Shown here piece by piece: positions 1-61,934 of a DNA stretch of 64,000 nucleotides (position 1 is the stretch's first letter; every line of letters starts with the position of its first letter). The notes beneath the pieces were generated by a model. The model was not told the DNA's origin. It was given only the letters and a program-made list of their open reading frames with translations, and did not search any database. The translations under genes and the position numbers were made by a program. The stretch is from a virus. Its lineage: Duplodnaviria > Heunggongvirae > Uroviricota > Caudoviricetes. Location: IMG/VR virus record IMGVR_UViG_3300042256_000013, positions 1 through 64,000 of that record; one strand, given 5' to 3'.

Positions 1-78
1 TAAAAGTCAAGTACTTTTATTCTGCATAAAGTATTTTTCGGACTAATCTTAAAGTACTTAAATCCTTCGTGTAACGCT

Positions 79-3383: not shown

Positions 3384-4055
3384 TTAAAGATAAGTTACTG
3401 ATGGTTCACGAGGATCTTCTTCAAATTCCATCTCATTTGCGATGATAGTTTCTTTAACTTGTGCATCTTCAAGCAGATGATAGTAATGCGTATCCAGGTC
3501 TGAATAGTACGCCTTACCTTGTTCAGTGACAAAATAGTCAATTTCTTTTTCTAATTCTTCATACAAAGATTGTTGCTTTGGTGAAAGGTTAACGTAATAC
3601 TCACCGGACATAACAGCATCAGTTGTATTGTAATGAACATATCGTGAAGAGTTATCACGCTTAACACTACATGTTATTTCTTTTATAAGAATGTATTCAT
3701 GTAATGCACGATAATATGTCCAGCGTTTTTGAGCACGTAAAAACTTCTCAATATCGACGTTACTTGCGGTGAAGCTCGCACCATCACCTTGCGAACAAAA
3801 ACCACAATACTGAGATTCTACACCTTCGAACCCGGTATTTTTCATAATTTCATGGTGGCGGTATTCGATGAAGTCATTCCAGTTTTGATCTTCAACGTTA
3901 ATGTCTCTGTTAAGATCAAGGGCTTTAGCTTGTTGTTGTTCGTTCAGTTCTTCAAATTTCATGGCAGTATCTCGCTTAATTGGATAAGCACCATTGCTTA
4001 CCTCATATAAAAGATTATACAGTACTGAATTGATAATGCAAGTACTATTACACAA
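3384..4055 (-). CDS. hypothetical protein (223 aa)
   Basis: Long minus-strand ORF; no domain recognised. Confidence 0.55.
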   Translation of the reverse strand: MCNSTCIINSVLYNLLYEVSNGAYPIKRDTAMKFEELNEQQQAKALDLNRDINVEDQNWNDFIEYRHHEIMKNTGFEGVESQYCGFCSQGDGASFTASNVDIEKFLRAQKRWTYYRALHEYILIKEITCSVKRDNSSRYVHYNTTDAVMSGEYYVNLSPKQQSLYEELEKEIDYFVTEQGKAYYSDLDTHYYHLLEDAQVKETIIANEMEFEEDPREPSVTYL

Positions 4056-4117
4056 TTAATGTACTAACGTGATATTAATACATTAATTGTGTGGATACCA
4101 GGTATCCACACTTGCTA

Positions 4118-4438
4118 TTATGCTTCTAACGCAGAACCAGTAAGTTTATAATGTTCACGTGCGGCACGAACATCATCAATAGTTTTGAAACGGCTTACAA
4201 AGAAACCTTTACCTAACGTGATAGTCCTGGTACGATTGGCAATAGATTGTTCAGATTCATCCATGTACTTAGGAGTTTTAGGAGACATATCAGCCGGGAA
4301 GTACACGACATATGCCATCTCAGTATAATCAACAATTACGCCGTGAGTAAATTCACCGTAATTATGAACTACTACAGTACCTAAAGCTAAAGGAAGTCTC
4401 TGAGTAGTTGCAACGTTTACAGTAGTGGATTTAGTCAT
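4118..4438 (-). CDS. hypothetical protein (106 aa)
   Basis: ORF preceded by leader repeat copy 3 at 4505-4650. Confidence 0.5.
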   Translation of the reverse strand: MTKSTTVNVATTQRLPLALGTVVVHNYGEFTHGVIVDYTEMAYVVYFPADMSPKTPKYMDESEQSIANRTRTITLGKGFFVSRFKTIDDVRAAREHYKLTGSALEA

Positions 4439-28045: not shown

Positions 28046-28369
28046 TTACTTGCCTTCGTCTTTGGGCTTAATTTCTTCGAATTCATCATCTTCAGACGAA
28101 GTACGAGTGGCATCTTTACCATCTTGTTCTTCCTGGAGAGTTTCGAATTTGCCCTCGTCCACAATGGACTGGTACTGATAGTACGCAGTGATTCCGAAGT
28201 TCAGAAGAAGAACTCCAAGGACACCGTACACGCCAGCAGAAAACATGCCAAACGCAATGAATACAATGTACATAGGATCGATGTACTTAACATCCTTGAA
28301 GTTTTCGTACATTTCTTTTACAGTACGTTTAGCGACTACTGGAATAATATCTTTGGTATTCTCGTCCAT
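28046..28369 (-). CDS. membrane protein (107 aa) with acidic C-terminal tail
   Basis: Promoter aaaaagtccTTGACG-N17-TATACT upstream at about 28385-28430. Confidence 0.55.
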   Translation of the reverse strand: MDENTKDIIPVVAKRTVKEMYENFKDVKYIDPMYIVFIAFGMFSAGVYGVLGVLLLNFGITAYYQYQSIVDEGKFETLQEEQDGKDATRTSSEDDEFEEIKPKDEGK

Positions 28370-28411
28370 TTTTATTTCCTCTTGTTCAGTTGATATACGT
28401 AGTATACGGGA

Positions 28412-28816
28412 TTATTCAGAGTCCGTCAAGGACTTTTTACGAGCTTTTTCTTCACGGCGAGCGATGCTGGTTTCACGCAGTTTAGTTAACCCGTTGAATA
28501 ATACTGTTGTAATAACAAGAAGGGCAACGTACCCTACGATCATTACACCGAATAAGTCAGCCAGTATTCCGAAAAACCCAGCACTTTCAAAAACAGAAAG
28601 AACTCGCATGATACACCCAAGTACAGTGAATAATGCAATTGGTGCGATAGTTTCAATCAGTGTAACTTTTCCATAAAGGTCTAATGTATTATTAATTACA
28701 TCAGGAACTTTATCGAAACCGAATGACCAATCAATGATCGCCAGTACTATTACACCTACAATGAACCATTGATAATACATGGAGAACGTTGTTGCTAAAT
28801 CCCAAAAACTAATCAT
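28412..28816 (-). CDS. membrane protein (134 aa, 3-4 TM)
   Basis: Hydrophobic helices; basic C-terminus. Confidence 0.5.
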   Translation of the reverse strand: MISFWDLATTFSMYYQWFIVGVIVLAIIDWSFGFDKVPDVINNTLDLYGKVTLIETIAPIALFTVLGCIMRVLSVFESAGFFGILADLFGVMIVGYVALLVITTVLFNGLTKLRETSIARREEKARKKSLTDSE

Positions 28817-29168
28817 GTTTTTTACCTCGTTTAATTAGACAATATTCGCGAACAGAAGACATTATTTGACCAGTAATTAATATTACTGCTAATAACATAC
28901 AGAATGATAACCATGTATTGAATACACAAGCTAACAACCATATGATAAAAACATCTTTAAATACGAGCCAGATTATGGTACTCAATACTGAGCATACTAA
29001 ATGGAAACCGAGAAATGAATTGAATTCTGAATCATCAAACATATCTTCCATATTGTCGTACACATCAGTGCCGAATACCCATGCTAAAAATATTAAAACA
29101 CCTAAACCAACCAAAATAAGTGAAGGTATAAATGAATAGTCATAGATAGTAGTAATAGTACTGATCAT
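28809..29168 (-). CDS. KRGK-tail small membrane protein paralog 1 (119 aa)
   Basis: N-terminus MISTITTIYDYSFIPSLIL..WVFGTDVYD; C-terminus ...CLIKRGKKHD; ATGA-coupled. Confidence 0.6.
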   Translation of the reverse strand: MISTITTIYDYSFIPSLILVGLGVLIFLAWVFGTDVYDNMEDMFDDSEFNSFLGFHLVCSVLSTIIWLVFKDVFIIWLLACVFNTWLSFCMLLAVILITGQIMSSVREYCLIKRGKKHD

Positions 29169-29509
29169 TTTTTACCTCGTTTAGTTAGACAATACTTCCG
29201 TACACAAGACAGTATACGTGCAATATACACTAAGGATGTAACTGCTATTAAGAATGATAACCACGTATTGAAAATACACGCGGCAGGCCACAAGAATTCA
29301 CTATCTTTAAACCATAACCAGATTCCAACACTAATTATAGAACAGATTATATGAATAATAACAAAGAAATTGAAATCATCATCATCAAAGTGTTTTTCAA
29401 TCTTATCGTACATATTTGTACCGAATACCCAAGCAAGTAACACCACAACACCAATTATCATTAAAATTAATGATGGAATAAATGAATAGGGATAGATAGT
29501 ACTGCTCAT
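29165..29509 (-). CDS. KRGK-tail small membrane protein paralog 2 (114 aa)
   Basis: N-terminus MSSTIYPYSFIPSLIL..WVFGTNMYD; C-terminus ...CLTKRGKK. Confidence 0.6.
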   Translation of the reverse strand: MSSTIYPYSFIPSLILMIIGVVVLLAWVFGTNMYDKIEKHFDDDDFNFFVIIHIICSIISVGIWLWFKDSEFLWPAACIFNTWLSFLIAVTSLVYIARILSCVRKYCLTKRGKK

Positions 29510-29850
29510 ATTTTACCTCGTTTGTGTAAGCACCATGCGTTAAATGAGTGCAGTAAATCATAAACTACACGAACACTGTAGACGAACAGTATCAATGAGC
29601 ACCATACGTTCCATACAGCCCAACCATAGATGAAGTACTCAGTGAACATATATCCAATTGCGTTGAATATTAATGTGAACCAGAAATAACCTTTCATGAA
29701 GTCCAAAGAGTTATACCATGCCTTCTTGAAACGATCATACCAGTCCGTACCGAACAACCACATCATGTATACAAACAATGTCAGTGCTACATAGGTAGCT
29801 GATGGCACATAGATGTATTGTTGAATGAATGTCCAGATTGTACTAATCAT
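29506..29850 (-). CDS. KRGK-tail small membrane protein paralog 3 (about 114 aa, start at MISTIW)
   Basis: ATGA overlap with upstream stop; ...WLFGTDWYD; C-terminus ...CLHKRGKI. Confidence 0.55.
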   Translation of the reverse strand: MISTIWTFIQQYIYVPSATYVALTLFVYMMWLFGTDWYDRFKKAWYNSLDFMKGYFWFTLIFNAIGYMFTEYFIYGWAVWNVWCSLILFVYSVRVVYDLLHSFNAWCLHKRGKI

Positions 29851-30188
29851 ATGCGGCGACCCCGTTTGTTTGCAAAGTACTGACGACATTTAGCCAAGTA
29901 CTCAAATATTACTACACATAAAGTACTTAGTATAACAATGATCCACAAAATCATATTGATATACAATGGTGCAATGAATAGATCACCTACAATGAAGTAT
30001 CCTACGACTATCATAATAAGTAATACCACAGACCATATAGTTGTCAAGAATGCAGGCAATCCATCCCCAATCTTAACAATTTTGAAGTAGTAGTCTGCAC
30101 AAGTTAACCAACCTATACTCATAATTACCACTGTTGATAAACCCATTACAAAACAAAGTACTGCTAATACATCAAAGAATACTTGCAT
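29847..30188 (-). CDS. KRGK-tail small membrane protein paralog 4 (113 aa)
   Basis: ...WLTCADYYF...; C-terminus YFANKRGRRI. Confidence 0.55.
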   Translation of the reverse strand: MQVFFDVLAVLCFVMGLSTVVIMSIGWLTCADYYFKIVKIGDGLPAFLTTIWSVVLLIMIVVGYFIVGDLFIAPLYINMILWIIVILSTLCVVIFEYLAKCRQYFANKRGRRI

Positions 30189-30242
30189 GATTGTTTTCTC
30201 TTTTAATAAAGAACTCCCCCTTCGGGGAGTTCTACTTATGTG

Positions 30243-31016
30243 TTATACTTCTTCCATGTACTGGCTACGGTCGTAGATCCAGTCCATATAGGACATAAGG
30301 GAATTACGTTTACGCAGAGTCGGATTAGAACGAATCTCTTGAATAGCTTCATCCCACGTAATAGAAGTACGACCGAGTTCACGAAGAACTTCACGGCAAT
30401 AGTTCTGACCAGAATCACATGCACCTGCACGATTCAGAACGCGTGGATTAATTGTACGGTTCTTGAAGGTACGACCGAGTTTCTGGAATTCTTCGGTAGT
30501 CAGATAACGAAGACTCCGAACAACATCGTGACGTTTTTTCATAATCGCGATACCTTCATCAGTAAAGATGAAGTGCTTGATCGCCGGGTTTGAATTCGTG
30601 CACAAAATATTGTTCAGATCGTGGTAGTTCATAAGACCAAGTGCTTCAACAACTGGAACTGAATCTTGAGTACTGGCAATTGCACGACCGTAATTACGAC
30701 GATTGTATTCATTGTCGAGAATTTCACGAATCACACGGTACGGCATCTGAACTGCTGAGAGTAAATCCCAATCTTCATATTGTGAGATCTGAAGAAGTTC
30801 AAGCCACTGTTCAGTACTGAGATTTGATGGTACAGCACGTTTATTTTTGATCAAAGATTTGATCACGGGTTTCGCCATTTTGAACAGGTAGGTGTTCAGA
30901 ATTTCAGCATCAACACCTTCCAGATCACCAATACGAATTGATTTCCACTGAACGTGTGGGAGTAATGCTTTATCCAGAGTCTGGAGAGTTGCGTCTTCAA
31001 TTTGAAGTTTAATCAT
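30243..31016 (-). CDS. W(D/N)E-module family protein 1 (257 aa)
   Basis: C-terminal module ...CDSGQNYCREVLRELGRTSITWDEAIQEIRSNP...SYMDW shared with 37930-38772, 39379-40170 and 40768-41994. Confidence 0.55.
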   Translation of the reverse strand: MIKLQIEDATLQTLDKALLPHVQWKSIRIGDLEGVDAEILNTYLFKMAKPVIKSLIKNKRAVPSNLSTEQWLELLQISQYEDWDLLSAVQMPYRVIREILDNEYNRRNYGRAIASTQDSVPVVEALGLMNYHDLNNILCTNSNPAIKHFIFTDEGIAIMKKRHDVVRSLRYLTTEEFQKLGRTFKNRTINPRVLNRAGACDSGQNYCREVLRELGRTSITWDEAIQEIRSNPTLRKRNSLMSYMDWIYDRSQYMEEV

Positions 31017-31044
31017 TTTTACAATACCTTTACGAAGTTAAATT

Positions 31045-31383
31045 TTAACGACCACGTTTTTTCCAGAAGTACTTTCTGGATTGTTCGAACCAGTTAATAA
31101 TATTCATTCCGATAAACACAACAATGCAAATCATGTTAACAGTACCCACAATACCAAATGATAAGTTATGAGTAAACTCATCAGTATGTGTTCCAGCTAT
31201 TAATCCTAAAATGTTTATAAAACACCAGAAGAACCATGAAATTGCATTACATATAATGAATATACTAACTAAATCACTATTCAGTTTAAAGTAATAGTTA
31301 GCACCTGTCCAATATCCAACCAGGAAGATAACACAAAAAATCAATACTGAATATGATAATATTTCACATATAGTAAAGAACAT
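31045..31383 (-). CDS. KRGK-tail small membrane protein paralog 5 (112 aa)
   Basis: ...YWTGANYYF...; C-terminus YFWKKRGR; TAATG coupling. Confidence 0.55.
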   Translation of the reverse strand: MFFTICEILSYSVLIFCVIFLVGYWTGANYYFKLNSDLVSIFIICNAISWFFWCFINILGLIAGTHTDEFTHNLSFGIVGTVNMICIVVFIGMNIINWFEQSRKYFWKKRGR

Positions 31384-31730
31384 TATAGTTTACCCCTCTT
31401 TTTGCCGAAGTAATGTTTAAGATCACGGAAACCGTACCAAGTTCCGAATCCTACAATACATGCGTAAACCAGTAATGATAACGCTGTACACCATCCTAAC
31501 CCATAGCGGTATCCTTTGTAAAGGTCTTGCTCAACTAATGTAGCAAGAATTAAATTCACAAGGAAACAACCAGCTTGAGTTCCAAATACAGCATTAAATA
31601 TTTGCTTTATGTATTCTGGTAGATTAGTATAATAATCGGCATATGTCAAGTTCCCGATTAAATAAATTATTGCTGCAACTAACCAGATACTCAAGTTGAT
31701 TGGTGCTAAAAAATTGTACATATCATGCAT
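31383..31730 (-). CDS. KRGK-tail small membrane protein paralog 6 (about 115 aa, start MHDMYNF)
   Basis: AAGGTATAAAACT-ATG; ...LTYADYYT...; C-terminus YFGKKRGKL. Confidence 0.5.
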   Translation of the reverse strand: MHDMYNFLAPINLSIWLVAAIIYLIGNLTYADYYTNLPEYIKQIFNAVFGTQAGCFLVNLILATLVEQDLYKGYRYGLGWCTALSLLVYACIVGFGTWYGFRDLKHYFGKKRGKL

Positions 31731-31734
31731 AGTT

Positions 31735-32058
31735 TTATACCTTATTTCGTTTTCGACCGAAGTACTGGCGAAGTATTGAAGCATTCAGGCAGAACAACAA
31801 TATCATGTTCAATGATAATGTAACCCCGAACATCTTACACAAATTGAGATACATTTCAATATTGAAGCCTTTATCAAAACCAGTTATAACAAAGAGAACC
31901 CCAACTACTCCGAATGCAATAATCGTAAACTCTTTGAAGTCCTTTATGAACTTCTTGTTAAACTTATCATAATAATCGGCATAAGTTAAGTACCCTACAT
32001 AAAGTACTACGCCGAAGACGATCCATAAATGAGTGAGGATAAACCCATAAATTAACAT
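31735..32058 (-). CDS. KRGK-tail small membrane protein paralog 7 (107 aa)
   Basis: ...YLTYADYYD...; C-terminus YFGRKRNKV. Confidence 0.55.
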   Translation of the reverse strand: MLIYGFILTHLWIVFGVVLYVGYLTYADYYDKFNKKFIKDFKEFTIIAFGVVGVLFVITGFDKGFNIEMYLNLCKMFGVTLSLNMILLFCLNASILRQYFGRKRNKV

Positions 32059-32069
32059 TCAAATACTCC

Positions 32070-32858
32070 TTATGATTCTAAGCAGACTTTCTCTGCATGT
32101 TTTTCCCACTTATTGGGGAACTGAGTATACAAGCCAGCTAACTGTACTGGCATACGTAATGATGGCATACGTAACTTATCGCAGTTCTGAAGCATGAAGT
32201 TCAGGATTTCATCAGCACCTTTTTGATTTACGCCAAGATCCTTTACGATGTTAGTAGTACGCATGATGTTTTCAATATGAATCATTACACTTTCATTGTC
32301 ATGGATTTCCAGGTCAATGAACGCACCACGAGTCATAAGAGCACATACATGCGGAGCCAATGCACTACGACCTTTAGAAACCTTTACTAAGTCTTTGTTC
32401 GTAATGAATACTACTTTACCGTTGAACTCGAACTGAGTAGGAATTCCATTATCACGAAGTACCTGAGAAGAACTCATGTACGTAATGATACGTTTATCAT
32501 CGGATTCCAAAGATGCTTTCAGAAGGTTCAACTTATCTTCAGTATCGAATACATCCACATCATCAAGTAACAGTACTGAACCTGTATGACGTGCATTATA
32601 CAACGCCTGGTATAAACCTAAACCAGTACATTTACCATTAAGATAAAAGTAGTTACAGAAACCCGTATCATGTGCTTCTTCTAAACGCTTAATGACATTG
32701 TATGATTTACCAATACCACTTGCACCCGTAACAGTCATTGACTTGATCGGGTTGAACGGATTCAGGACACACTCTAACATGTCCATCATTGCGTCGAAGT
32801 TTTCTGCGATACGTTGTTTCAGTTTTTCACGATGTAAAGACATATTGACCTCTCTCAC
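32070..32858 (-). CDS. P-loop NTPase (AAA-like ATPase)
   Basis: Walker A GASGIGKS and Walker B LLLDDVD. Confidence 0.65.
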   Translation of the reverse strand: MREVNMSLHREKLKQRIAENFDAMMDMLECVLNPFNPIKSMTVTGASGIGKSYNVIKRLEEAHDTGFCNYFYLNGKCTGLGLYQALYNARHTGSVLLLDDVDVFDTEDKLNLLKASLESDDKRIITYMSSSQVLRDNGIPTQFEFNGKVVFITNKDLVKVSKGRSALAPHVCALMTRGAFIDLEIHDNESVMIHIENIMRTTNIVKDLGVNQKGADEILNFMLQNCDKLRMPSLRMPVQLAGLYTQFPNKWEKHAEKVCLES

Positions 32859-32939
32859 TTAACGAAGACAATTGTATCATTTATCTCATGGCACGTCAAG
32901 CCCAAAACGAAAAAAGGGAGCACCCGGCTCCCTTTTCTT

Positions 32940-59949: not shown

Positions 59950-60134
59950 GGTATTTTACCTTTATGGTTTATTGAGTTTCTTTGTTACATCATTGTACTA
60001 CAATTTTATGGCATACGCAACAGGATTTTCACCTGTATCCCCAGAACCTCTCTGAGCGAACCAGTATCCTATCTAATCTATTATATCCCTTCTTTGGACA
60101 ATACGCAAGATTAAACATTAGACGATACGTATAG

Positions 60135-60207
60135 TGGAGCTATGCGGATTTGAACCGCAGACCTACTACGTGCAAGGCAGTTGCTCTACCAACTGAGCTA
60201 TAGCCCC
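60135..60207 (-). tRNA. tRNA-Ala (anticodon UGC)
   Basis: GGGGCTATAGCTCAGTTGGTAGAGC...CTTGCAC...GGTTCAAATCC cloverleaf; close to enterobacterial tRNA-Ala; CCA not encoded. Confidence 0.8.
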
Positions 60208-60289
60208 TTATCACGTCCTTACTTATACCGAGTCGGCTATCGGGCAGACGTGATACACCCCGAAGCACATTGGCTTTGTATAAGTTTGA

Positions 60290-60362
60290 TGCGGAGGGTG
60301 GATTTGAACCACCGACCTCCAGGTTATGAGCCTGGCAAGCTGACCATGCTGCTCTACTCCGC
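60290..60362 (-). tRNA. tRNA with CAU anticodon (Met or Ile-lysidine)
   Basis: GCGGAGTAGAGCAGCATGGTCAGC...CTCATAA...GGTTCAAATCCACC; CCA not encoded. Confidence 0.7.
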
Positions 60363-60495
60363 ATTTCCTATGTGATTATTATACCACAATTTTTTGAGCC
60401 GTTCCAAATTTTTTCAATCTTTTTTTTTCAATTTCAGTACTGAGCGGCTATCTCTCAGTTCATGACAACATTATACCAGAAAATTTCTGGTCGTT

Positions 60496-60840
60496 TCAAC
60501 TTTTTTCGAAGATTTTTTTCTTACAATCTTCTAACGCGTCAATCGCTTCTTCGATTGTACTCAGTAATCCATAATGGTTTTCACGAAAGAAACGTGAATT
60601 ATTCTTTGTTAAGGCATACCCTAACAATTTACCATGATTGATAACACGAGTAATTGATAATGAATATGATGCTAACGAAATTAAGTACTGGTCATATTCA
60701 GATTTTGTTACAACTTCATCAATATCAAAATCGTCATCGATTTTGTATCCATGAAGTCTATTATTTTCGTCAATACCATAAACAGCAAAACTAACATCCC
60801 AATTGATTTTCATCAACATATCAAATATTTTTTGTTTCAT
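60496..60840 (-). CDS. hypothetical protein (about 114 aa, start MKQKIF)
   Basis: Track ORF N-terminus overlaps the tRNA at 60858-60933, so an internal start was chosen. Confidence 0.45.
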   Translation of the reverse strand: MKQKIFDMLMKINWDVSFAVYGIDENNRLHGYKIDDDFDIDEVVTKSEYDQYLISLASYSLSITRVINHGKLLGYALTKNNSRFFRENHYGLLSTIEEAIDALEDCKKKIFEKS

Positions 60841-60857
60841 ATTTATAGTACCATCAA

Positions 60858-60933
60858 TGGTGGTCAATACTGGGTTCGAACCAGTGACGCCGACATTATG
60901 AGTATCGTGCTCTACCAACTGAGCTAATTGACC
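60858..60933 (-). tRNA. second tRNA with CAU anticodon (Met/Ile2), CCA encoded
   Basis: GGTCAATTAGCTCAGTTGGTAGAGC...CTCATAA...GGTTCGAACCC...ATTGACCACCA. Confidence 0.7.
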
Positions 60934-61127
60934 TTTGGATAATTCTGCACATTATGTGCAAGTGCATTGATCGATGTACGAGCGTTACGAATTGCAGTTT
61001 CAGCATTAGACTGATAATGATTAGTAACTTGCTGTACTGAGCTATCAACAATTATATACTGCTGTAGCTCGTGTTGTAAAGCCATTAATTCACTTTCAAT
61101 CTGGACTAACCGTTCAGCACTGATCAT
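60924..61127 (-). CDS. small coiled-coil protein (about 67 aa, start MISAERL)
   Basis: AGGGGAAAATC-ATG. Confidence 0.4.
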   Translation of the reverse strand: MISAERLVQIESELMALQHELQQYIIVDSSVQQVTNHYQSNAETAIRNARTSINALAHNVQNYPKVN

Positions 61128-61318
61128 GATTTTCCCCTGTTTTGATGATATTTCACAAAAGATAACCAGCATTTTGACCAGTACTCAGATTCTTTGAGAT
61201 TTTCAATTAAATCACGATGAATAGCACAATCTGGTACATTTTCAATGGTGGCATTTTCAACTTCAGACACCAGTGATTGTAACAATTCGGTAATTTCAAC
61301 CAAACGTTCTTTATTCAT
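61124..61318 (-). CDS. small protein (about 64 aa, start MNKERLVEITELL)
   Basis: GTTAGAGGTTCACATA-ATG. Confidence 0.4.
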   Translation of the reverse strand: MNKERLVEITELLQSLVSEVENATIENVPDCAIHRDLIENLKESEYWSKCWLSFVKYHQNRGKS

Positions 61319-61395
61319 TATGTGAACCTCTAACTTAAAACGTGCAATCATTATTACACGTAGCCTTGAGCGTGTCAAGGACTTTTTGGGTAAGA

Positions 61396-61472
61396 TGGTG
61401 GGCTTTCAGGGATTCGAACCCTGGACAAACCGATTAAGAGTCGGCTACTCTAACCAACTGAGTTAAAAGCCC
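61396..61472 (-). tRNA. tRNA-Lys (anticodon CUU), CCA encoded
   Basis: GGGCTTTTAACTCAGTTGGTTAGAGT...CTCTTAA...GGTTCGAATCCCTGAAAGCCCACCA. Confidence 0.7.
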
Positions 61473-61825
61473 ATATCCTTAACTGCTCTCGTCAAAATGT
61501 AATTGAAGCGACAGCAATCATAAAATGTTAAATCGAACCGTTGTTCTTTCACTATATCACGATATTCTACAATACTTAGTTTTTCTTCTCCTGAATCATC
61601 TAAGTTCAGTAGTAAACCAAAGTCAATGACACATACTAAAATATGAAGACCACCTTCATCATCAAAGTATCCAAGTCTTAGTAATGGTACTGGAGAATCT
61701 TCTGCGAAGTACATAATGTAAGTTGTACCATTATAATCTATAGTACAATCTTCATAACGTAAGAAATGATGATAGTTCATATCAAAGAACTTCGCTATAT
61801 CCTTAAGTGAGTTTAGTTCATTCAT
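61463..61825 (-). CDS. hypothetical protein (about 120 aa, start MNELNSL)
   Basis: AAGGAAATATAT-ATG; the upstream part of the track ORF is tRNA-Cys antisense. Confidence 0.45.
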   Translation of the reverse strand: MNELNSLKDIAKFFDMNYHHFLRYEDCTIDYNGTTYIMYFAEDSPVPLLRLGYFDDEGGLHILVCVIDFGLLLNLDDSGEEKLSIVEYRDIVKEQRFDLTFYDCCRFNYILTRAVKDMGF

Positions 61826-61857
61826 ATATATTTCCTTATATATACAGTTCATTTTTG

Positions 61858-61934
61858 AGCGTGGAGAGGGATTTGAACCCCCGACTTTACGGATTTGCAA
61901 TCCGTTCCAATTGGCCTGACTCTGGCATCCACGC
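61858..61934 (-). tRNA. tRNA-Cys (anticodon GCA), long D-loop
   Basis: GCGTGGA acceptor, ACGGATTGCAAATCCGT anticodon arm, GGTTCAAATCC T-arm. Confidence 0.6.

Follow-up and report, generated by a model that had tools for sequence, protein, structure and literature searches.

Several described systems of small phage membrane proteins can be set beside the locus analyzed here. Class I holins such as lambda S105 and P22 gp13 are proteins of about 105–120 amino acids (aa) that have three transmembrane (TM) helices and an N-out/C-in topology and end in a basic cytoplasmic tail. T4 Imm and Sp, like the T5 lipoprotein Llp, are small envelope proteins made early by virulent phages; Imm has two TM helices and is encoded by a single gene. 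The locus in question lies in a 64,000-nucleotide (nt) stretch of a tailed-phage genome (positions 1–64,000 of IMG/VR record IMGVR_UViG_3300042256_000013, hereafter called the window) and is an array of eight paralogous genes for predicted three-pass inner-membrane proteins. By predicted size, number of TM helices, topology and charged C-terminal tail, the array proteins are like class I holins. They differ from them in that they have no lysis cassette, no dual start and no family match, are preceded by early-type promoters, and come as five to nine paralogs per genome instead of as one gene. They recall Imm, Sp and Llp as small and apparently early envelope proteins, in this case inner-membrane proteins clustered with a lipoprotein, and the likeness to Imm goes no further. 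Unlike Imm, they have three TM helices, form a multi-paralog set, have a conserved cytoplasmic face and show no sequence match at the Pfam level. Their direct homologs are the proteins of PHROGs 13405, 16874 and 19792, which include the positional orthologs GAP32_522-527, CBB_539-545, g519 and g521-524 of phage fHe-Yen9-04, and gp384-389 of Serratia phage BF. The window proteins match these in size, predicted three-TM architecture, motifs, operon position and neighbors, with no essential difference. In the annotation of phages GAP32 and CBB they appear as "membrane protein, 3 TM", the GAP32 record giving the three helices by both TMHMM and Phobius, and the supplement of the CBB paper lists CBB_539, CBB_540, CBB_541 and CBB_543 as paralogs.

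A first-pass annotation of the window had described seven open reading frames (ORFs) at 28809–32058 as a tandem family of seven paralogs of 107–133 aa. The seven ORFs exist on the minus strand, and independent PHROG profiles show them to be homologous beyond chance. The count is eight, however, with products of 107–134 aa each and the additional gene lying just beyond the interval first annotated, and two of the listed ORFs had been over-extended (Table 1). Nor is the array a single tandem run: it is split into blocks of three (g1–g3) and five (g4–g8) genes by an unrelated 257-aa gene and a hairpin. All eight proteins match PHROG profiles (E 4.6e-7 to 8.7e-23), and a hidden Markov model (HMM) of the family, run against all six-frame ORFs of the window, returned exactly eight matches, all at this locus and on this strand. 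Cross-matches connect the phrog_13405 group (g1–g4) with the phrog_16874 group (g5–g7). The most divergent branch, represented by g8, was joined to the rest of the family by profile-profile comparison (hhalign probability 97.4%, E 9.7e-12, 105 columns), and phrog_19792, the profile matched by g8, is also weakly matched by g6 and g7. Two observations led to corrected starts for g2 and g5: in the listed 133-aa and 127-aa ORFs the PHROG alignment sets in only at residue 19 and residue 22, respectively, and the orthologs in Kaldavass and XbC2 have annotated lengths of 112 and 114 aa. The long forms start at in-frame ATGs within the preceding genes, and the true products are 115 and 114 aa.

Positions 28400–32900 of the window are 77–78% identical in DNA sequence to Erwinia phage Kaldavass and Xanthomonas phage XbC2 (genus Mimasvirus), and weaker DNA matches were found to Pectobacterium phage CBB and Yersinia phage fHe-Yen9-04. 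Because of these matches, the window is assigned to a CBB/GAP32-like jumbo myovirus of the Mimasvirus/Eneladusvirus lineage. Array proteins are also present on a 371-kb metagenomic contig from JGI.

Hydrophobicity analysis found three hydrophobic helices in each family protein, in agreement with their first-pass description as small multi-pass membrane proteins. For g1, AlphaFold2 modeling from an alignment of 23 sequences (predicted local distance difference test score, pLDDT, of 73.8) gave helices at residues 2–24, 35–60 and 67–91 plus a short C-terminal helix at 93–103. For the family as a whole, an alignment of 105 sequences was used, consisting of the eight from the window and matches from two large protein searches. 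In this alignment the mean number of lysine and arginine residues is 7.7 for loop 1 plus the C-tail versus 0.83 for the N-tail plus loop 2, and the former value is the higher one in 105/105 sequences. Based on this distribution and the positive-inside rule, the N-terminus is predicted to be periplasmic and the C-terminus cytoplasmic. Sequence conservation is confined to two blocks, both predicted to face the cytoplasm: block A, [VI]G[WY][LW][TF]x[AT][DN]YY[DT]K, where TM1 ends on the cytoplasmic side, and block B, the C-terminal RxY[FC]x[KR]KR[GN]K. TM2, loop 2 and TM3 keep only their hydrophobicity. The motifs pointed out in the first-pass annotation were thereby recovered family-wide, in the forms [AT][DN]xY[DTF]K and, for the tail, block B itself. 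Loop 1 has a net charge of -1.7, block A being a net-acidic, aromatic turn, and the C-tail is strongly basic (+5.2). The parts predicted to be exposed to the periplasm are tiny, with about 7 aa in the N-tail and about 9 aa in loop 2.

The ratio of nonsynonymous to synonymous substitution rates (dN/dS) was calculated by the Nei-Gojobori method for positional orthologs among the window, Kaldavass and XbC2. It ranges from 0.08 to 0.42 for every pair of family member and ortholog, and none is close to 1. By region, values are 0.06–0.09 in block A, 0.12–0.15 in block B and 0.12–0.39 elsewhere, with 0.2–0.3 in the variable TM2-TM3 part. A ribosome-binding site stands ahead of each family gene. The family genes are real and under purifying selection; a reading of them as spurious ORFs was rejected on the dN/dS values, the ribosome-binding sites and their conservation in 12 genomes. 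Family members nonetheless diverge faster than neighboring genes: amino acid identity between the window and Kaldavass is 32–74% for the family versus 71% for the 257-aa protein, 84% for a downstream lipoprotein and 94% for a P-loop protein encoded upstream.

The first-pass annotation had proposed looking for the array in related phages, and 5–9 copies per genome were found in 12 genomes, seven of them cultured and five metagenomic, the latter retrieved using the 257-aa gene as an anchor. The seven cultured phages and five metagenomic contigs share one gene order: P-loop NTPase, family copies, 257-aa gene, further copies, a bitopic protein and a DUF1190 lipoprotein. Clustering separates the copies into five types whose order, A, B, C/D, E, is fixed in all 12 genomes. 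Type A (YADYY ... KRNK) is present in one to four copies ahead of the 257-aa gene, and exactly one type B (GWLT[CH]A[DN]YY ... KRGR) comes first after that gene in every genome. Types C (GWFFSTDYYD) and D ([MT]W[LV]F[AG]TDxYD) together account for one to three copies, and exactly one type E (DWxFGxDK) stands last. In the window, g6 and g7 share 54% identity and have one common counterpart, Kald_70/XbC2_575; g7 looks like a lineage-specific duplicate of g6, and owing to this duplication the 3 + 5 copies of the window are one more than those of Kaldavass and XbC2. The CBB locus was found to have a split type-A member, CBB_540/CBB_541 (positions 3791–4143 of that locus), the two parts matching the N- and C-terminal halves of the family profile; the split reflects either a pseudogene or a sequencing frameshift. 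Overall, the pattern shows ancient specialized paralogs with occasional expansion, not rapid turnover. The first-pass annotation had read the diversification of the family as the mark of an arms race. A fast-turnover array of that kind is argued against because the 5–9 copies, in five ancient types, keep their order in 12 genomes, and the dN/dS values of all ortholog pairs, including those of the TM2-TM3 part, point the same way.

The paralogs are tightly coupled. Overlapping stop and start codons, reported in the first-pass annotation, are read directly from the sequence as ATGA at g4/g5, g5/g6 and g6/g7 and as TAATG at g2/g3; the g7/g8 junction reads ATGATTAG, and g1 and g2 are separated by 4 nt. 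In 22/24 genes with an overlapping family successor, the Arg-Gly pair of the tail motif is encoded by CGA, CGG, AGA or AGG followed by GGN, and these codons produce a GAGG-like Shine-Dalgarno sequence 5–8 nt upstream of the next ATG. The Arg codon is CGT in five of the six genes lacking a coupled successor (Fisher p = 8e-4 versus coupled genes). The Lys-Arg-Gly codons of each coupled gene therefore hold the Shine-Dalgarno sequence of the next, and the tail motif is kept in coupled and uncoupled genes alike. Because it is kept in both groups, the motif appears to be selected at the protein level, with the ribosome-binding site fitted into it by synonymous codons. The converse idea, that KRGK is kept solely for the Shine-Dalgarno sequence of the next gene, was rejected since uncoupled genes retain the motif with other codons. 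A related overlap is seen at the end of the array. The g8-type tail ...KKSLTDSE is invariant, and its DNA (28412–28440) contains the -35 box TTGACG of the next promoter; the perfect conservation of this tail probably reflects the overlapping promoter. The locus is a clean example of dual coding, in which a protein motif holds the next ribosome-binding site and a protein tail overlaps a promoter.

The hairpin between the 257-aa gene and g4 resembles an intrinsic terminator. Its stem, AACTCCC/GGGAGTT, is invariant in seven phages while the flanks vary, and the motif is unique in the window. Conservation of the stem at the level of sequence hints at a role beyond simple termination. There is no space for a promoter between the hairpin and g4, and g4–g8 would therefore be reached by read-through. 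Expression of T4 delayed-early genes is lowered or delayed by read-through, and by analogy we infer that read-through of the hairpin may lower or delay expression of g4–g8. In BF and fHe-Yen9-04, a near-identical hairpin (GACTCCCTTCGGGGAGTC) was also observed within the spacer of the promoter ahead of the P-loop gene.

A consensus scan placed sigma-70-like promoters both ahead of the operon and after the array (Table 1). An equivalent of the former, TTGAC(G/A/T)-17-TA(C/T)A(A/C/T)T, precedes the orthologous P-loop gene in 7/7 phages compared. Over the whole window, 20 sigma-70-like promoters (TTGACN-16..18-TAnnnT) were found on the minus strand versus one on the plus strand, with 4.3 +/- 1.9 expected for both strands together; minus-strand examples are those at 57415, 55748, 53887, 48216, 35123, 32899, 28429, 11765, 6196 and 4682. 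Promoters 35123, 11765, 5411, 4682 and 3371 have a common spacer end, GCCCTTTTTGCTAT or a near variant of it. The T4-type late motif TATAAATA occurs once in the 64 kb (60840–60847, about 29 kb from the array) versus 9.1 +/- 2.9 expected, and it appears to be avoided in this early region. The authors of the CBB study proposed, likewise on promoter prediction, that CBB_390-546 is an early host-takeover region (PMC5259590), and the orthologs CBB_539-545 fall within it. From the promoter motifs and this published prediction, which are consistent with one another, we infer that the array is expressed early.

A word-indexed search of 5.8 billion proteins returned 20 clusters, and an exhaustive HMMER search of 1.84 billion representative proteins returned 87 family clusters (50% identity) of 78–133 aa, with no domain fusion among the 87 representatives. 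Matches in phage collections were restricted to Mimasvirus, Eneladusvirus and Kaldavass records even when the most divergent representatives were used, tblastn included, and at the sensitivity of that tblastn search no copy was seen in RaK2, 121Q or PBECO4. No member reached the gathering cut-off of any Pfam family (matches at E<=1 were inspected). For the eight proteins and two soluble neighbors, Pfam, NCBIfam and PADLOC gave only sub-threshold matches of the kind expected from TM composition. A PDB sequence search with the family profile gave nothing below E 0.1, and no fold match for the family was found. The JGI names "HD phosphohydrolase", "YybS" and "NhaC" attached to family proteins come without any supporting domain match and were disregarded. 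A literature search found no transcriptome, toxicity screen or functional study of family genes. The first-pass statement that no family matches therefore stands as far as a known function is concerned, but not for the family as such: by the profile matches it is already catalogued in PHROGs 13405, 16874 and 19792 as "membrane protein", besides the GAP32 and CBB annotations, and the locus adds a new instance.

Table 1. Positions of the array genes, their neighbors and regulatory elements in the window, listed 5' to 3' along the minus strand.
Feature	Position	Strand	Product	Sequence features and matches
Sigma-70-like promoter ahead of operon	32871..32899	-		TTGACG-17-TACAAT, upstream TG (extended -10); consensus scan
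P-loop NTPase, first operon gene	32070..32858	-	262 aa	Walker A GASGIGKS; phrog_1250 E 2.8e-103; weak AAA_16, AAA_22
g1, type A	31735..32058	-	107 aa	GYLTYADYYDK ... RQYFGRKRNKV; phrog_13405 E 2e-14; AAGGAG ribosome-binding site upstream
g2, type A	31383..31730	-	115 aa from corrected start	phrog_13405 E 9e-23; orthologs 112 aa
g3, type A	31045..31383	-	112 aa	TAATG overlap with g2; phrog_13405 E 4e-18
257-aa protein	30243..31016	-	257 aa	Unrelated to family; soluble, all-alpha; phrog_27654
Intrinsic-terminator-like hairpin, 257-aa gene to g4	30210..30233	-		AGAACUCCCC-GAAG-GGGGAGUUCU, then U-rich; -18.8 kcal/mol, z -5.5
g4, type B	29847..30188	-	113 aa	GWLTCADYYFK ... RQYFANKRGRRI; phrog_13405 E 1e-18
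g5, type D	29506..29850	-	114 aa from corrected start	ATGA overlap with g4; phrog_16874 E 2e-13
g6, type D	29165..29509	-	114 aa	ATGA overlap with g5; phrog_16874 E 5e-16
g7, type D	28809..29168	-	119 aa	ATGA overlap with g6; phrog_16874 E 4.5e-13
g8, diverged type E	28412..28816	-	134 aa	DWSFGFDK ... LRETSIARR...; ATGATTAG overlap with g7; phrog_19792 E 4.6e-7
Sigma-70-like promoter for next gene after array	28401..28429	-		TTGACG-17-TATACT; after last family member in 7/7 phages
Bitopic neighbor, downstream	28046..28369	-	107 aa	Single TM; extremely acidic C-terminal half; own promoter and terminator
Very basic ORF	27836..27994	-	52 aa	...RPKKKKKFGKKKK; precedes lipoprotein gene, ATGA overlap
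DUF1190 lipoprotein, downstream	27183..27839	-		PF06693 E 7e-34; lipobox LTGC, Asp at +2; Ser-rich C-terminus

The array is solidly placed in a conserved module whose genes, predicted to be early, encode envelope proteins. Asp at position +2, as found in the downstream DUF1190 lipoprotein, marks inner-membrane retention under the rule for E. coli lipoproteins, and the lipoprotein gene is syntenic in all relatives. The bitopic acidic protein has a counterpart gene at the same position in all relatives and is the fastest-evolving gene of the module (dN/dS 0.42–0.52, 30–35% identity to Kaldavass and XbC2); it matched neither a PHROG nor a Pfam family. At the position of the 52-aa basic ORF, relatives have small ORFs of 46–56 aa. 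The 257-aa protein occurs in 18 phage records, the organism breakdown of which is identical to that of the records matched by family member P0057, and the array is present in 5/5 of the metagenomic loci retrieved through it. Upstream, an HNH endonuclease accompanies the P-loop NTPase. The latter has a dN/dS of 0.06 against Kaldavass, and its GAP32 ortholog, GAP32_521, is annotated as "similar to nrdC.10" (T4 nrdC.10). For the window gene, the ATG at 32843, which encodes Met6 of the ORF as listed, is probably the true start in place of the listed GTG at 32858; the orthologs begin at an ATG preceded by GAGAGAGG. Beyond the lipoprotein gene lie a gene for a 167-aa protein and then a bidirectional terminator (26649–26675), at which a run of RCC1-repeat (WD40_RLD) paralogs on the plus strand (19446–26647) converges on the module; the CBB orthologs of these proteins are annotated as virion structural proteins. 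Elsewhere in the window, five tRNA genes (Ala-TGC, two Met-CAT, Lys-CTT and Cys-GCA) were noted among small ORFs at 60134–61934 on the minus strand, arranged as in Kaldavass.

It is solidly supported that the array is real and conserved and that its eight co-translated genes encode three-pass inner-membrane proteins whose cytoplasmic face is conserved. As to function, we tentatively favor, as a possibility short of an even bet, an early remodeling of the envelope of the infected cell, for example for superinfection exclusion or membrane protection. Host RNA polymerase would transcribe the operon right after infection from the sigma-70-type promoter at 32899, g4–g8 being transcribed only via read-through of the conserved hairpin, and translational coupling would deliver the paralogs together. 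The proteins would then insert into the host inner membrane and assemble with each other, possibly also with the 257-aa protein, via their charge-complementary cytoplasmic motifs. Such mutual assembly is suggested by the translational coupling, the fixed paralog order and the charge complementarity of the motifs. Acting with two downstream gene products, the bitopic acidic protein and the DUF1190 lipoprotein, the assembly would alter the envelope of the infected cell. Its most plausible effect would be to block DNA entry by other phages (superinfection exclusion), or else to keep the membrane intact during the long jumbo-phage cycle. The first-pass annotation had proposed a role in exclusion or immunity, and such a role stays plausible because the genes lie in a sigma-70-promoter-rich early region adjoining other envelope proteins. 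Several points weigh against envelope remodeling. The known exclusion proteins, T4 Imm among them, each depend on one gene and do not come in conserved sets of five to nine, and the tiny periplasmic parts of the array proteins leave little surface with which to contact an incoming phage. The searches run found no homolog of known function. Early timing is based only on promoter consensus matches and one published prediction, and hetero-oligomerization only on coupling, fixed order and charge complementarity. Moreover, a cytoplasmic partner would account for the strict conservation of the cytoplasmic face no less well than exclusion would.

Such a partner is central to a doubtful but serious alternative, in which the paralogs are membrane anchors or adaptors whose DYY turn and basic tail tether the 257-aa protein to the inner membrane, with the P-loop NTPase as a further candidate. 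They would then serve an intracellular task such as organizing replication or transcription, or transport, instead of exclusion. A more specific and slightly more doubtful proposal gives each of the five types a non-redundant place in a single hetero-oligomeric inner-membrane complex. The acidic DYY turn and the basic KKRGK tail would hold its subunits together, and the 257-aa protein would be bound at its cytoplasmic face. If true, the complex would be an undescribed early membrane machine of this jumbo-phage lineage, for example a gate for DNA entry or ion flow. Polar residues occur within the TM helices of some types (for instance, a His in TM2 and an Asn at the start of TM3 in type D), and small, multi-pass, co-translated proteins make an oligomer plausible. 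Both features would suit a phage-encoded channel (viroporin), a hetero-oligomeric pore for ions or solutes by which the phage would adjust membrane potential or ion content soon after infection, which we regard as the most improbable of the roles considered.

The paralogs might instead inhibit host defense or serve host takeover, each using its variable TM2-TM3 hairpin to neutralize a different inner-membrane protein of the host; membrane-acting abortive-infection effectors, proteases, transporters and division proteins would be candidate targets. The position of the array in the predicted early host-takeover region, a TM2-TM3 part that diverges much faster than the neighboring genes (39–41% versus 71–94% amino acid identity), and a copy number of 5–9 with lineage-specific duplications such as g6/g7 would all fit. 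We nevertheless consider this role unlikely: with a dN/dS of 0.2–0.3, the variable region does not show positive selection at the resolution used, the constant order of the five ancient types suits fixed roles better than target-chasing, and there was no match in PADLOC or elsewhere. Cell lysis is likewise unlikely as a role, although the first-pass annotation had listed holin- or antiholin-like factors among its suggestions and the proteins do share with class I holins such as lambda S105 their size (105–120 aa), three TM helices, N-out/C-in topology and basic cytoplasmic C-terminus. To our knowledge, holin systems do not comprise five to nine conserved paralogs. In favor of lysis-timing proteins of this class, no holin has been reported for XbC2, only a lysozyme (ORF184) and an o-spanin (PMC11273794), but ORF184 is remote in numbering from the array at ORF569-576. 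The annotations list no holin, endolysin or spanin in the corresponding 30 kb of Kaldavass, nor next to the array in any of the relatives. The region is rich in sigma-70 promoters, the early-type promoters of the operon are conserved, and no late-promoter motif is nearby. There is also no dual start of the Met-Lys-Met type, and no Pfam or NCBIfam holin family was matched at E<=1. Taken together, these observations make a holin or antiholin very unlikely.

Jumbo phages of the CBB/GAP32 group carry hundreds of early genes without a known task, and the module containing the array is among the few with a clear anatomy. The family is small and lineage-specific, and its cultured carriers CBB, GAP32, BF, fHe-Yen9-04, XbC2 and Kaldavass make the hypotheses directly testable. 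If the array does serve exclusion or membrane protection, it would account for the way in which a large, slow phage guards its host cell against competitors.

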